DNA from: Eledone cirrhosa
Lineage: Eukaryota
Direction: 5' to 3'
Length of the DNA: 64,000 nucleotides
NCBI GenBank assembly: GCA_964016885.1
Contig: OZ024744.1
Span: 82,894,001 to 82,958,000, forward strand
In this document: in pieces, positions 4,649 through 61,525 of the stretch
How positions within the stretch are numbered: the first letter of the stretch is position 1
Layout of the letters: each line of letters begins with the position of its first letter
Made by a program: the position numbers and the translations under genes
Notes under the pieces: model-generated
The model's database searches: none
Told to the model about the DNA's origin: nothing
What the model saw: the letters and a program-made list of their open reading frames with translations, nothing else

Positions 4649-4990
4649 TGCTCTGAAATAGCGATGTATACATGAATGTATGTATAGTTTATTTGGTAAT
4701 ATACCGTATGTTTAATTAAAAACATTTTGAAGACCTTGCGCTATCATTTTTACTATCATTTTTACTTCTTTTTACTTCTTATTTCGGCAAAAGAAGGGAG
4801 AGAAGCTGACAGATTCTGTTTCACGCTGTTGGCATCATCAGAGCCTTTGCCGAAAATTATAGAGGCTGGATTCTTATAGAATACCAGTAATAATCAGGAA
4901 CTGATTATACAGAGCGATTGCCGGTTCAGCAAAAATAAAAAATTAGGATTAATGCTCTGAAATAGCGATGTATAGTATATTTGGTAATAT
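4649..4990 (-). mobile_element. Retrozyme-like element (~300-bp period) with hammerhead
   Basis: The direct repeat TGCTCTGAAATAGCGATGTATA at 4649 and 4953 brackets a hammerhead. The element is adjacent to (TA)n. Confidence 0.6.
4803..4846 (-). ncRNA. Minimal type I hammerhead ribozyme
   Basis: Minus strand: AGGCT-CTGATGA-TGCCAACAGCGT-GAAA-CAGAATCTG-TC^AGCTT. Stem I is 5 bp, stem II is short and imperfect, stem III is CAG/CTG, and the cleavage triplet is GUC. Confidence 0.75.
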
Positions 4991-5882
4991 TTGGAAAATA
5001 TACAAAGTCCTGTTGTATGGACGTGTGCCAATATTAATTTACATTTGTGTATATGTTCATACGAGGTAAATTAGCGGTCCGGTAAAACGAGATCGATAAA
5101 ATATATACCGGACTTGAAGAAATAAGTAGTGGAATCGATAAGATCAAGTACATCGCGTTAAGGCTATCTCACACAGCCGTACTATAAAGGGTGAAACCTC
5201 TAAAAGAACGGATATATATATATATATATATATATACAAATATAAATTAGCGAGAATCGTTTTCAGCTCAGGAATTAACGAAAATCAACGTCCGATATGT
5301 GTGGCAAGCGCTCGATGAATCATATGAATCAGAGCTACAACATACGTTAAGGGCCAAACACACTGAGATGATGGTTAAACATATCATCCGCACAGCCAAA
5401 ACAAAACGACCAAGTAATTCGGGTCAAACAATAAAAATATATGTGTTGATACTATATATATAGGTGTGTGTGTGTGTGTGTGTGTCTGTGTGTGTGTGGT
5501 AGAAGTTGTACTAGGGGCAACAAGAGTTAAATACTTCAATGGTAAAAGAAGGCCGGATTCCAAATATCATTATAATGTTGCAAAATCAAGATACGTATTT
5601 CATACATCTAATATATACATATATGCACGTATATATATATATACATACATATATATATATATATATATATATATATATGTATATATATATATATATATAT
5701 ATATATATATATATATATATATATATATATATATATATATATATATATATATATATATATATATATATATATATATATATATATATATATATAACGTGAA
5801 TGTAATACCTAACACCTTTCGTAATTGTACTCCTTGTTTTTGTTGTTATCAAATTTTCCAATATATATATATATATATATAT

Positions 5883-6145
5883 ATATTTATTAAAATAACA
5901 GATTAAAGTTTAAGCAAAGAATCGCTGCTTTCACCCTTAACGAGATCTTCTGAAACTAACAAAGTCAATCTGATTGACTTTGTTAGTTTCAGAAGATCCC
6001 GTTAAGGGTGAAAGCAGCGATTCTTTGCTTAAACTTTAATCTGTTATTTTAATAAATATTTGCTCTACGGTTCTTATATATTTGATATATATTTTCCTTA
6101 TCGAGCCCTCTTTGGATCTTAGTCTTCAATTTTATTATTATTACT
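5883..6145. mobile_element. Fold-back element, family C (near-perfect ~88-bp-arm palindrome centred at 5971)
   Basis: Arms 5883-5970 and 5972-6059 differ at about one position. The element lies between long (TA)n tracts. Related copies are at 13828-13905 and 35935-36340. Confidence 0.85.
5985..6035 (+). ncRNA. Hammerhead ribozyme-like motif with U4A core variant (mirror copy 5907-5957 on minus strand)
   Basis: AGTTT-CAGAAGA-TCCC GTTAA GGGT-GAAA-GCAG CGATTCT TTGC-TT^AAACT. All three stems pair, but the core is CAGAAGA instead of CUGANGA. Confidence 0.65.
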
Positions 6146-6484
6146 ATATATATATATATATATATATATATATATATATATAGTAATATATATATATATA
6201 TATATATATATATATATATATATATATATATATATATATATATATATATATATATATATATATATATATATATATATATATATATATATATATATGTATA
6301 TATATATATATATACATTCATACATAGACATATGAGGGTGTGCGTATGTGCGTATACAATTGAACACACGCGCTCATATAAATATATATATATATATCTT
6401 TGCGCACCGATGACAAACACAAGAGGTGGGTGTGACTGTCTCCGCTCTGTTAACGCAACTCACTCCTTTTTCTGTTAACTGAAG

Positions 6485-6550
6485 ACATGTAGTGTCTAAA
6501 ATGCCACGCACTCGCTTCTGTCCGGAAGAAAGCAGTCAGATGTGGGCTGG
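6485..6550 (+). CDS. Candidate host microexon (66 nt)
   Basis: Unique sequence after a pyrimidine tract, bounded by ...GAAG| and |GTACCT. Open in phase 2 (HVVSKMPRTRFCPEESSQMWAG). The donor is weak. Confidence 0.3.
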
Positions 6551-59698: not shown

Positions 59699-60169
59699 AT
59701 GATGATGTTGTTGATAATTGTGATGATGATGATGATGATGATGATGATGATGATGATGATGATGATGATGGTGGTGGTGATGATGGCGGGGATGGTGACG
59801 GGGATGATGAAGATGGTGGCGGATGTGATGATGGTAATGAAGATGATGATGATGATGGTGGTGATGATGGATGATGATGATGATGACGACGATGATAACA
59901 ATACTGCTGCTGAAGACGTTGATGATGAAGACGACATTATGATGGATGTTATTTTTAAATTTTGAAGGGGTTAGAAAGAAAATAGTTTGAAAATATAACC
60001 TCCCATCCCGCCAAAACAAGAATTAACAGGAAACAATCAGCCCCTTAAGATTGTGGTCGGCTCGGCAGCAAAACGTCACAATTATAAACCAACAATTTCA
60101 AATCCCTAAATACTTTCTTTGCCTCACGAATCAGAATAAAACAGGACTCACTCCGACAGAACCAATAAT

Positions 60170-60675
60170 AATTGTTTCTACTTTTGGCACAAGGCCAGCA
60201 ATTACCCAGTACATTACTGGTACTTTATTTTATCGACCGCGTAAGGATAAAAGGCAAAGTTAACCTCGGCGGGATTTGAACTCAGAATGGCAAACTTTTT
60301 GGCACAAGGCCAGGAATGACACCAGTGCATTACTGGTACTTTATTTTATCGACATGCTGCAAAGCATGCTGCCCTACTTCTACCGATACTGCTGCCCTAC
60401 TTCTACCGGTACTGCTGCCCTACCTTCTACCGATACTGCTGCCCTACTTCTACCGATGCTGCCAATCTAAAAGGTTTCTGATTTAGGCACAAGGCCAAAC
60501 ATTTTAGGGAGAGGAGAAAGTCGATTAAATCGACCCCAGTGCATTACTGATACTTTATTTTATCGACCCCCGTTAGGATAAATGGCAAAGTTAACCTCGG
60601 TGGTAAAGGGCCATAACGCTATGCCTCGAAGCATGGTGTTCGACGCTCTACCGATACTGCCGATCCACCGCCCTA
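60170..60675 (-). mobile_element. Cluster of about three rearranged tRNA-derived SINE copies
   Basis: Repeated GGCACAAGGCC and TTTATCGAC. There is an internal ~23-bp tandem repeat, TACTGCTGCCCTACTTCTACCG. Confidence 0.8.
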
Positions 60676-61044
60676 ATATCAATAATAACAATAGAGTCAC
60701 GTGTACAAACAATTCGGATGTGCAACCAGTGCATAGGCATGTAAGTTGGTGATCCAAAATATATAGTTGTTAACATAAATAAAGGAGAAAAAAACCCAAT
60801 AACCGGCATCGATTAATTGATCCAAGTGATCACTGATCACTATTTAGTACGTTAACTGATAATTTTGTAACGGAAATCACATCTCTGAGGCACTATCTGT
60901 AATTTGTTATATTTCTCAAGAGGATCCGAATAAGGTGAAACATTTGTTCTCGGTATGGTGAACTAACTGTTGTAGATCTACTTTTATATATATATATATA
61001 TATATATATATATATATATATATATATATATATATATATATATA

Positions 61045-61525
61045 TATAAATGGAAAAAATGAAACAAAAATTTCATTTCATTTCTCACTCTTAGTACAGC
61101 TGTTACTTAAATATAAGTATGTATACGTACTAAGAGTGAGAAATGAAATGAAATTTCGTTTCAATTTTTCCATTTATCGTTTTCGGTGCGCCCGGCCGAT
61201 TAACTCACTCGATATGCAAATTAGGCTGCTCAGCCGTTAATATGCATAAGGAAAGTATATACTTTCAGACGTTCAATCATCTGTCAGGAAGGTATACGGT
61301 GCTGACGATAGCTAATAAGCTTGAAACTAGTACATCGTTCCTTTGTCAGTGTTGAACAAAAAGGGCACCGATGGTTGCTAAACACTGTACGGCTTAGTTC
61401 GGGATGTTTATTTACAAACAAACCGAGCATTATAATAAATGCTCGGTAAACCCATACGTACATATATATATATATGTGTGCATGTATGTATATATGGTAA
61501 TACTACTGTACGTCTGTATACATAT
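61045..61525 (+). mobile_element. Retrozyme-like element family D: short inverted piece plus forward monomer
   Basis: 61045-61097 is the reverse complement of 61127-61177. The forward part carries a hammerhead. Flanked by (TA)n, with a second copy at 2655-2916. Confidence 0.85.
61296..61338 (+). ncRNA. Minimal type I hammerhead ribozyme
   Basis: ACGGTG-CTGACGA-TAGCT AATA AGCTT-GAAA-CTAG-TA^CATCGT. Stem I is 6 bp, stem II is 4 bp, CTAG is palindromic and the cleavage triplet is GUA. Confidence 0.9.

Follow-up and report, generated by a model that had tools for sequence, protein, structure and literature searches.

Hammerhead-bearing repeats of the cephalopod Eledone cirrhosa: fragments of coding Penelope-like elements and retrozymes likely mobilised by the Penelope machinery

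The hammerhead-bearing repeats described here very probably fall into two groups. Families B, C, F and H would be pLTR fragments of coding Penelope-like elements (PLEs), and families A, D, E and G retrozymes which are likely mobilised by the Penelope machinery, in steps proposed below. The window, that is the whole stretch of 64,000 nucleotides analysed, had been the subject of a sequence-only reading, in which many independent, ORF-less families mobilised by Penelope enzymes at (TA)n were suggested. The elements recognised in it are listed below.

4642..4974 (-): family A, retrozyme-like unit, period ~318 bp; hammerhead with C3 at 4841 and cleavage site after 4808, stem II damaged in this copy
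5887..6147 (+): family B, end of the pLTR of a coding element of Hydra type; inverted piece 5887-5972 carrying hammerhead 5952-, forward piece 5972-6147 with an A4-variant hammerhead, C3 5990, N17 6030
8181..8382 (+): family C, part of the pLTR of a coding element of Hydra type; inverted piece 8181-8250, then a forward piece beginning at the predicted transcription start, with a hammerhead (C3 8255, N17 8293)
11819..12005 (+): family I, inverted and forward piece with only the 3' half of the hammerhead; further copies 12170-12218 and 30592-30785
14094..15330 (+): family D retrozyme, unit (period) of 535 bp; inverted piece 14094-14587, 1.4 forward units 14592-15330; hammerhead (+) C3 15083, N17 15154, long stem II
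18040..18390 (+): family N, lone pLTR piece of the Neptune-type element found in this window, with a U3-A8 motif resembling a hammerhead at 18148
25798..26879 (+): family E, retrozyme-like element, unit (period) of 533 bp; inverted piece 25798-26344, forward unit 26344-26879; hammerhead C3 26533, N17 26606
31913..32069 (+): family F, representing the 3' end of a coding element of Hydra type, with a hammerhead (C3 31972, private U4C; N17 32021)
32555..35720 (+): family N, Neptune-type PLE, 5'-truncated and frameshifted; inverted pLTR 32555-32865, RT and GIY-YIG remnants 32851-35023, 3' pLTR with a weak U3-A8 hammerhead at 35465
35760..35949 (-): family H, piece of the pLTR of a second coding element of Neptune type, with a U3-A8 hammerhead (U3 35926, N17 35897)
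35957..36338 (-): family B, second copy; forward piece 36257-35957 with the cleavage site deleted, inverted piece 36258-36338 with an intact hammerhead 36269+
61046..61540 (+): family G retrozyme, unit (period) of ~428 bp; short inverted piece and one forward unit; hammerhead C3 61302, N17 61332; partial G copy 2659-2926 (-)

The layout with an inverted 5' piece, which had been ascribed to most of the elements, is present at 5887, 8181, 14094, 25798, 36258 and 61046 and in the Penelope element, and absent at 4642-4974 and 31913-32069. Insertion in or beside (TA)n was read correctly, as every window copy touches (TA)n or another TA-inserted element. Family I was absent from the earlier list.

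Hammerhead motifs in the window and in the genome

A type I descriptor was applied which demands a 3-8 pair, a GA-N-RA core, GAAA, U16.1-H17 and stems I, II and III of at least 5, 3 and 3 pairs. It matches the window at 5990+, 5952-, 8255+, 15083+, 26533+, 31972+, 36269+ and 61302+. Seven of the nine sites named by the sequence-only reading pass it; the exceptions are 4803-, a copy which lacks one stem II base relative to family A (hammerhead intact in 22 of 41 copies), and 35894-, with a U3-A8 core and a stem I of 3 bp only. Among the best 150 of 232 Rfam matches there is no hammerhead, almost all of them being microsatellite-driven miRNA models. Intact hammerheads were counted in 55/77 copies of B, 55/67 of D, 110/125 of F, 55/71 of G, 48/101 of H and 32/46 of E (stem II left out of the scoring); C scored 15/116, because eight stem I pairs were demanded and most C copies end there. 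Two unusual bases at core position 4 had been allowed for: A4 at 5985 stands as the norm of family B (72/77 copies), and C4 at 31964 turned out to be a private mutation in a family with U4 in 124/125 copies (F).

Stem covariation among genomic copies, whose absence had been named as contrary to the earlier proposal, is present: compensatory changes occur in A, C, D, F, G and H and, in E, at the 3-8 pair (stem II double changes of D are paired in 11/11 and 14/14), with none in B or N, these counts being of copies, not of independent events, and without a shuffle control. One H subfamily (23 copies) has a broken stem III. By their core and three stems the sites that pass the descriptor are type I hammerheads, with self-cleavage predicted. 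That palindromic AT-rich repeats fold into the motifs merely by chance is extremely improbable, and for the families as a whole this idea is refuted. One AT-rich satellite in the genome sample (L052) did yield six false matches, removed before density counts, and two named sites miss the descriptor; however, the window holds 8 matches against 0.17±0.37 (maximum 1) in 12 block shuffles, an evenly spaced genome sample of 800 kb holds 60 against 2.5 in the chance comparison, cores are conserved, stems covary, and the motif is located in pLTRs, where Penelope hammerheads are known.

Density estimated from the sample is about one hammerhead per 14-19 kb genome-wide instead of the one per 7 kb given earlier. 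The expectation of very many genomic ribozymes is nevertheless borne out, with an estimated ~100,000-360,000 motifs by the descriptor used here. At least 18 recurring hammerhead clusters were found in this lineage.

Coding and non-coding families

By their sequence, families B, C, F and H represent pieces of the pLTRs of protein-coding PLEs, three of Hydra type and one of Neptune type. Coding links were sought in the 30 loci that scored best in each family, with flanks of 1.5 kb, and the ORFs of C and F were reached only by a second search farther upstream. A GIY-YIG-type ORF lies upstream of B in 6/30 loci, and in L108 the pLTR is followed by the start of the ORF. In L416 a pLTR of C leads into a 632-aa open frame (RWR, DKT, YRDD, CxCx5C) and then a second pLTR; C has 658 protein relatives at E<=1e-20, and those listed, 120 in number, are unnamed, one of them bearing a gene identifier. 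Homology in F is unbroken from the endonuclease to the hammerhead in 6/30 loci, and for H a Neptune-type endonuclease lies upstream in L269, with partial matches in 2 more of the 30. None of the 30 loci each of B, C, F and H shows unit-length tandems, and long copies join Penelope-like ORFs. The statement that the elements have no ORF thus holds for the window copies and fails for these four families; they had been taken for independent non-autonomous families, yet their longer copies run into or precede Penelope-like ORFs, and they are ordinary pLTRs of coding Penelope families, the outcome which the sequence-only reading had itself named as contrary to its proposal. Among dispersed copies in the 800 kb sample 62 of 69 are pLTR fragments of coding elements and 7 are others, so that most dispersed copies are not independent non-autonomous families.

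Hydra-clade motifs were read in translations of L108, L130, L330, L355, L360, L416 and L419; Pfam gave no match for the Hydra-type frames in L416 and L420. B, C and F carry DKT, CxCx5C, CxxC, CxH and a C-terminal endonuclease without CCHH, and have a (TA)n target; B and C have RWR in place of RWK, and the N-terminal motifs of F are only partly readable. In N and H an RT, a Cx2-5CxxC linker, a C-terminal GIY-YIG with CCHH and a pLTR with a tail are found, N giving a GIY-YIG match at E 3e-8 and RVT_1 at E 2e-4 (below the cut-off). By these motifs B, C and F, and probably I, are of Hydra type and N and H of Neptune type, though N and H may instead belong to Nematis.

Families A, D, E and G consist of ORF-less head-to-tail hammerhead units of 318-535 bp and are, by this structure, classed as non-LTR retrozymes. 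Unit-length direct repeats occur at 20/30 loci of G, 20/30 of A, 23/30 of D and 10/30 of E (some loci overlap). A same-strand Penelope-like ORF lies upstream in 1, 0, 1 and 0 of 30 loci in the same order of families, the two matches being distant (30-37%) and outside family homology. The non-coding families postulated earlier are supported in these four cases, as closed tandem units without a joined Penelope-like ORF upstream (30 loci each). The longest stop-to-stop frame in D, E and G is 37-77 aa and their GC is 0.34-0.37. A satellite of G counts at least 112 units and covers 47 kb or more. A further retrozyme trait fits D (three in L189) and G (the satellite), and was seen in no examined locus of A or E and in no window copy. 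Predicted circular folding of the units gives z of -2.2 to -5.6 versus shuffles. Compared with five coding pLTRs, the units of D, E and G (A, lacking a natural full unit, was left out) showed nothing beyond chance or insertion matches of 14-27 nt.

Variants are shared between units of one insertion in D (66/118 concordant, 16.5 expected) and E (21/39, 5.7 expected), and to a lower degree in G (52/294) and A (18/105), with within-locus identity close to between-locus identity. Units within an insertion are not uniform, by which a single-circle template is not favoured; variant sharing within arrays does not decide between a circle and a linear multimer. When contigs of three sequencing runs were aligned to D, nothing emerged beyond numerous variant contigs and the joint between head and tail.

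Ends of the copies and the proposed mechanism

Two discrete 3' ends, ~30-120 nt apart, were found in 8 of the 9 families mapped, the reference of N being cut at the first end. Both 3' starts lie at short TA microhomologies with the target. Tandem families A, D, E and G share the Penelope signature of two 3' starts, inverted 5' pieces and (TA)n targets, that is, the insertion anatomy expected if they are moved by Penelope enzymes, as had been suggested. The proposed check of flanks for (TA)n was likewise positive, 48 of the 60 sampled hammerheads having a (TA)n of six or more repeats no farther than 200 nt away, against a baseline of 23% of random positions. The tandem retrozymes are likely mobilised by a Penelope-like RT and GIY-YIG endonuclease.

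In no family are 5' ends piled at the cleavage site. Unselected copies pile up within a 20-nt window in C (28/39), H (17/34) and I (82/121; a larger set of I was inflated by 562 (TA)n-only matches). TATA stands exactly 30 nt upstream of the pile-up in 27/28 long C copies and 6/8 long H copies, and at its edge in C and H there is a word which we take to be Inr-like. The pile-ups in C, H and I are likely due to run-off at a transcription start. There is no inverted copy or (TA)n directly upstream of 12/28 C pile-up copies, so some may be alignment ends. Ends of the tandem families are flat (best window 5/24, 5/21, 5/27 and 6/50; p 0.13-0.9 against uniform), only 2/122 lying at the cleavage site, which fits circular or long uncut templates. 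B shows no pile-up among 64 ends. The main peak of F (-92) was rejected as an artefact of subfamily divergence and a pile-up of G at +120 was removed as a low-complexity artefact.

The following course of insertion is proposed. As suggested by the targets and by the work of Frangieh et al. (2024, PMC11167929), the endonuclease would nick (TA)n on both strands. From the two observed 3' ends it appears that the two DNA ends would prime on the RNA at two fixed internal TA-microhomology sites downstream of the hammerhead. Head-to-head joining of the two cDNAs would give the inverted-plus-forward layout seen in the copies. In C, H and probably I most short copies would be cDNAs that pass through an uncut hammerhead and run off the RNA 5' end, which, judging from the pile-up and the TATA/Inr spacing, would be a promoter start just upstream of the hammerhead. 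For A, D, E and G the flat 5' ends point to a template without a fixed 5' end, copied beyond one unit length, and such a template is likely either a ligated circle released by the ribozyme, by analogy to coral, mussel and axolotl retrozymes, or an uncut multimer. Some published results speak against the scheme: a lizard Penelope element inserts without need for cleavage (PMC11167929), and 8/9 Xenopus dimers were uncleaved in vitro (Li, Clavereau and Pollet, bioRxiv 10.64898/2026.07.22.740005).

Other explanations have to be weighed against these steps. The pile-ups in C, H and I could instead reflect a splice acceptor, or the RT halting at a structure in the RNA, as CAG or TAG stands at each of them, with a pyrimidine-rich tract before it in C and I, the intron of D. 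virilis Penelope ends at the helix I 5' edge (Cervera and de la Pena 2014, PMC4209133), and family I has its pile-up within stem-loop II and a TATA-like word of poor conservation. This is considered unlikely: inspected flanks show no common exon sequence joined upstream of the pile-up copies, the exact TATA spacing and the Inr-like word in C and H suit a transcription start, and in these two families the RT has already passed the whole hammerhead.

With regard to the tandem families, it is quite possible that A, D, E and G are Penelope-mobilised from long linear read-through transcripts of arrays, the hammerhead being a largely silent remnant and circles not the templates. The satellite of G could supply multimeric RNA, units inside single insertions are often dissimilar in G and A (L023, L026), uncut RNA is the main in vitro substrate of the lizard element (PMC11167929), and flat 5' ends fit equally well; compensatory changes between subfamilies, however, maintain the hammerhead stems in A, D and G, the units are predicted to fold as circles more stably than shuffles, and circles have been demonstrated for coral, mussel and axolotl retrozymes (Cervera and de la Pena 2020, PMC7229834). 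Rather improbable is the view that all eight families are pLTRs of coding PLEs, with A, D, E and G made tandem by local DNA duplication and their coding parents unsampled. Dispersed copies on many contigs hold more than one unit in the same phase, their inverted 5' pieces run round the unit as well, the copies terminate at two common sites, and like sampling reached ORFs for B, C, F, H and N (C and F after the second search), although this view does hold for 4 of 8 families, the search covered the 30 top-scoring loci of each family with 1.5 kb of flank, and Xenopus retrozymes resemble pLTRs (bioRxiv 10.64898/2026.07.22.740005).

Starting from the preferred two-group scheme, a wider reading is offered tentatively, in which genome junctions record the life cycle: pLTR insertions end at the transcription start, retrozymes without a footprint are circles rolled by Penelope RT, and I has a half-ribozyme. 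If this is true, capped pLTR transcripts left tens of thousands of short "strong-stop-like" insertions ending at the transcription start, and RNA 5' ends would thereby leave a footprint; four retrozyme families with the same signature of two starts, twin priming and (TA)n targets and no 5' footprint even at the cut would then be genomic evidence of rolled circles. Since the predicted start of I lies inside stem-loop II, RNA begun in its 5' pLTR would include just half of the ribozyme, and cleavage would be left to the read-through 3' copy alone.

Relation to known systems

Like metazoan non-LTR retrozymes (PMC7229834; bioRxiv 10.64898/2026.07.22.740005), the tandem families are short non-coding tandems with one type I hammerhead per unit and GC below 50%, which occur singly, in short arrays and in long satellites, accompany PLEs and have self-paired circles as their predicted form; a U-U at the stem II base is shared with axolotl HHR_Amex2. 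The 533-535 bp units exceed the 150-450 bp of PMC7229834 but lie inside the 51-972 bp of bioRxiv 10.64898/2026.07.22.740005, and among the coding pLTRs compared none was recognised as a parent of D, E or G, as against 24/57 Xenopus families in the latter that have one. Inverted 5' pieces, two 3' starts and (TA)n targeting are described for retrozymes in neither source, and no cephalopod is analysed, as far as the available text of both extends. With the minimal hammerheads of pLTRs (PMC4209133) there are in common mostly single truncated copies or opposite-strand pairs 100-700 bp apart, the U3-A8 variant, a stem III that is palindromic and numerous families in each genome, whereas the A4 core is fixed in family B here. 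The count of ~100,000-360,000 stands against 2,000-9,000 minimal motifs in that work and is comparable to or above the 126,247 of axolotl, the descriptors differing in both comparisons.

B, C and F resemble Hydra-clade PLEs (Craig et al. 2021, PMC8557442) in DKT, the CxCx5C linker, CxxC, CxH and the lack of CCHH, and further likenesses are RW[K/R], a hammerhead in the pLTR and (TA)n insertion (B, C, F, probably I); they differ in RWR for RWK (B, C), in ~1 kb 3' UTRs (B, F, I) and in very high numbers of short pLTR copies. N and H agree with Neptune-clade PLEs in the Cx2-5CxxC linker and the C-terminal GIY-YIG with CCHH, DKG being present in N only. In Poseidon_Ac, whose template is uncut RNA, two internal RT starts downstream of the hammerhead likewise give a tail (PMC11167929); the starts found here have TA microhomology with the target and ~30-120 nt spacing, in contrast to starts non-homologous to the cut DNA and 30-40 nt apart in the lizard element.

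The association of retrozymes with PLEs is already published for other animals (PMC4209133, PMC7229834, bioRxiv 10.64898/2026.07.22.740005): PLEs were named a strong candidate for moving retrozymes in PMC7229834, and co-occurrence and sequence kinship were added in bioRxiv 10.64898/2026.07.22.740005. Likely new is the animal lineage, with an estimated at least 100,000 motifs per genome. The titles and abstracts listed in literature searches describe no cephalopod retrozymes or hammerheads (the supplement of PMC7229834 may list cephalopod repeats), and ribozymes are absent from the available main text of two repeat-annotation papers on the lineage. At stake are the identity of the enzyme that moves animal retrozymes and the role of circles as its template. 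Here non-coding retrozymes and coding Hydra- and Neptune-type elements bear the same insertion signature in one genome, and the distinction between sharp and flat 5' ends provides a simple genomic test usable in any species. The lineage itself gains an estimated at least 100,000 hammerhead motifs and at least 18 recurring clusters.

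Hammerhead motifs in the window and in the genome

A structural descriptor of type I hammerheads matched eight places in the window against 0.17±0.37 in 12 block shuffles, and seven of the nine hammerhead sites proposed from the sequence alone were confirmed in this way. These sites belong to families A (4803), B (5985 and 36264), C (8248), D (15078), E (26528), F (31964), G (61296) and H (35894); N denotes the Neptune-type Penelope element of the window with its pseudo-LTR (pLTR), and family I (11819) was added in the present analysis. The window copy of A fails the descriptor due to one stem II base missing relative to the rest of the family, and the H site due to a U3-A8 core with a stem I of 3 bp.

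The scanned assembly comprises 3.0 Gb in 1,796 contigs and is presumably that of an octopod, judging by its size and the SINE-like tails. In 80 evenly spaced 10-kb stretches (799,800 nt in total) 66 matches were spread over 29 stretches, while six shuffles of this sample gave 2-3 matches; six of the 66, all from a single AT-rich satellite, were removed. One family G satellite accounts for 15 of the 60 retained, and the bootstrap estimate of the genome total is about 215,000 motifs (118,000-358,000) with the stretch holding it and about 161,000 (101,000-226,000) without it. This density of approximately one per 14-19 kb comes from a descriptor which undercounts weak-stem families, e.g. H and N. 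The postulated enrichment of (TA)n in the flanks was evident, as 48/60 sample hammerheads have a tract of at least (TA)6 no more than 200 nt away, compared with 23% of random positions (34/45 hammerheads when the G-satellite stretch is left out). Within 1.87 Mb of loci, mostly selected by family searches, 388 matches formed 38 clusters, 18 of them recurring in at least two loci. At least ten other recurring families were seen outside the window (e.g. at sampled loci L033, L037, L043, L048, L055, L063, L070, L373 and L392), and some of these extra clusters have a very long stem II.

Stem covariation was present in A, C, D, F, G and H and at the 3-8 pair of E (8/9 double changes retain pairing), and compensatory stem changes were not found in B and N. 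Pairing was preserved in 11/11 and 14/14 double changes in D, 11/12 in A, 8/8 in G, 15/16 in F, 12/13 in C, and 12/12 and 11/12 in H, all these counts being copies and not independent events. One H subfamily of 23 copies has a disrupted stem III.

Repeats located in the window and elsewhere in the assembly
Window 11819-12005, 12170-12218, 30592-30785; L394:939, L420:5159-6830: family I copies
Window 13195-13658 and 15482-15945: arms of the inverted duplication around family D, 96% complementary
C28:109983000-110030000 (L411, L412, L390, L413, L414): family G satellite, at least 112 units of ~422 bp
Window 301-494, 2139-2323, 12025-12134, 19604-19724, 39172-39618, 60156-60687, 63305-63996: SINE-like tail copies

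Coding elements and tandem non-coding units

Links to coding frames were sought in the best 30 loci per family with 1.5-kb flanks, C and F being followed further upstream. For family B an upstream endonuclease frame (CxCx5C, CxxC, CxH) was reached in 6/30 loci, and at one locus (L108) an ORF carrying RWR and DKT comes after the pLTR. A family C locus (L416) comprises a pLTR, a 632-aa open frame (RWR, DKT, YRDD, CxCx5C) and, beyond a LINE insertion, another pLTR, after which the ORF start recurs. In family F unbroken homology extends from a CxCx5C/CxxC/CxH-type endonuclease to the hammerhead in 6/30 loci; a seventh endonuclease match was discounted as a separate insertion. Motifs of this type in B, C and F are those listed for the Hydra clade in the accessible text of PMC8557442. 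Family H continues at L269 into another Neptune-type endonuclease, which shares 42-58% identity with that of the window's N element, and N has its own ORF upstream in 14/30 loci. Because B, C, F and H join Penelope-like ORFs, half of the families which the sequence-only reading had considered independent and non-autonomous are pLTRs of coding elements, the very outcome which it had named as contrary to its interpretation; its description of ORF-less tandem hammerhead units stands for A, D, E and G.

Long copies of family I hold a complete hammerhead with a long stem II, and the cores of 12 inspected copies were U3-A8 in three, C3 opposite A8 in four, and truncated or altered in the others. Its 5' ends pile up inside loop II, hence the frequent short copies, three of which lie in the window, hold the 3' half of the hammerhead only. 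The family reaches 14 copies in the 800-kb sample, and since a Hydra-type endonuclease frame lies 1.1 kb upstream of one long copy, I is probably another coding-element pLTR. The tail of one copy is interrupted by a SINE-like tail. By homology, B, C, F, H, N and I contribute 62 copies to the 800-kb sample, and A, D, E and G seven dispersed copies, a further 23 G units lying in the satellite; most copies of the hammerhead system are thus pLTR fragments.

The unit recurs with a period of ~318 bp in A, ~535 bp in D, ~533 bp in E and ~428 bp in G, and direct repeats of unit length are present in 20, 23, 10 and 20 of 30 loci respectively (a few of these loci overlap). A same-strand Penelope-like frame was found upstream in 0/30, 1/30, 0/30 and 1/30 loci, the single frames of D and G being distant and outside family homology. 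No frame in the D, E and G units exceeds 77 codons, and clear similarity to the five coding pLTRs was not found. Circular folding was more stable than in 25 shuffles each (z -4.6 for D, -5.6 for G, -3.0 for E and -2.2 for A), and the extended stem I of A, with an internal loop, resembles the layout of canonical type I motifs. The G array spans at least 47 kb with the hammerhead intact in most of 71 units inspected. By sequence criteria, A, D, E and G classify as non-coding retrozymes.

Hints of higher-order repeats were seen in the G satellite. At another G locus (L023:-1477..1215) hammerheads are intact and broken in alternate units, the 864-bp period being more alike than the 438-bp one, which a dimer-length template or local duplication would give; L026 is likewise an array of dissimilar units. 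The D insertion of the window is centred in a bigger inverted duplication (13049-16171).

Neighbouring repeats and published systems

Window regions 39900-54300 and 57869-59695 hold several degraded endonuclease and RT frames of non-LTR retrotransposons, which we take to be L1/Tx1-like, and a 608-aa minus-strand RT frame, presumably CR1-like. The SINE-like tails are assumed to resemble octopus SINEs. An unclassified TA-flanked element (25305-25655) with the inverted 5' layout, free of descriptor matches, includes a near-perfect 112-bp inverted repeat (25468-25580). At 24451-24600 (minus strand) a family C-like tail adjoins a degenerate hammerhead-like motif (24550, plus strand) from another family. 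Nested Penelope-type insertions occur at L417:1640-2310, where an E copy, lacking (TA)n on the 5' side of its site, breaks the ORF in a coding element of family B and is followed by an N insertion.

According to the accessible text of PMC4209133, minimal hammerheads are widespread in pLTRs, where they occur as truncated single copies and as pairs on opposite strands, and also in the U3-A8 variant. In coral, mussel and axolotl, tandem type I repeats are described as being expressed in circular form, and Penelope-like elements are put forward as candidates for mobilising them (PMC7229834, accessible text); an origin of retrozymes from pLTRs has been argued (bioRxiv 10.64898/2026.07.22.740005, accessible text). 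The words hammerhead and ribozyme are absent from the main text of two cephalopod repeat papers (PMC13282606, PMC8967140). No literature on cephalopod retrozymes, nor on transcription-start run-off copies of pLTRs, was found in a coverage with most subscription papers and Repbase reports outside it. The Penelope-plus-retrozyme system seen here is a known one, in a lineage for which no description of it was found; what had been observed in the window was largely right, and its interpretation half right.

Ends of the copies and the template

Two discrete 3' ends, ~30-120 nt apart beyond the hammerhead, were seen in eight of nine families mapped, each located where a short TA-rich word runs into (TA)n (in D at ~+70 and ~+190 relative to the cleavage site). 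In the exception, N, the reference stopped at the first end and the tail was visible in a separate comparison. Inverted 5' pieces frequently start at the inner of the two 3' start sites. The paired 3' ends correspond to the two RT start sites which create the tail of Penelope (PMC11167929, accessible text), except that in the families here these sites have microhomology with the target. A Penelope-type RT and endonuclease probably act at the target, with both nicked (TA)n strands priming (twin priming).

Copies rarely begin at the cleavage site: 0/71 5' ends in A, 1/53 in D, 1/64 in E, 2/119 in B, 0/178 in F, 0/83 in H, 1/41 in N, and 1/168 in G and 0/235 in C, the last two totals being inflated by low-complexity matches; after cleaning, the tandem families gave 2/122. 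Among copies found other than by their own family's query, 28/39 ends of C lie within -56 to -37, 17/34 of H within -81 to -62 (12 of them at -73 to -69) and 82/121 of I within -50 to -31. A TATA word stands exactly 30 nt ahead of an Inr-like A at the pile-up edge in 27/28 long C copies and 6/8 long H copies, and the TATA-like word of I is poorly conserved. Rotifer pLTRs carry TATA and Inr-like words (PMC3846280) and D. virilis has an internal promoter without TATA (PMC2377424), as stated in the accessible parts of these papers. The short copies are probably cDNAs which passed the uncut hammerhead and ended by run-off at the RNA 5' end; a less likely alternative is that the pile-ups mark a splice acceptor, YAG being present at every edge (C, H, I). 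Family B has no pile-up, the ends of F are ambiguous, and N copies are too few.

In the tandem families the 5' ends show a flat distribution (p 0.60, 0.13, 0.25 and 0.90 against uniform; n 24, 21, 27 and 50), which argues for a template without a fixed 5' end, and both a circle and a long uncut multimer fit. Variant sharing inside arrays exceeds chance yet is frequently discordant, in G and A most, therefore the circle is a candidate template only. The junction evidence links the retrozymes to Penelope enzymes and supplies a test of the circle template.
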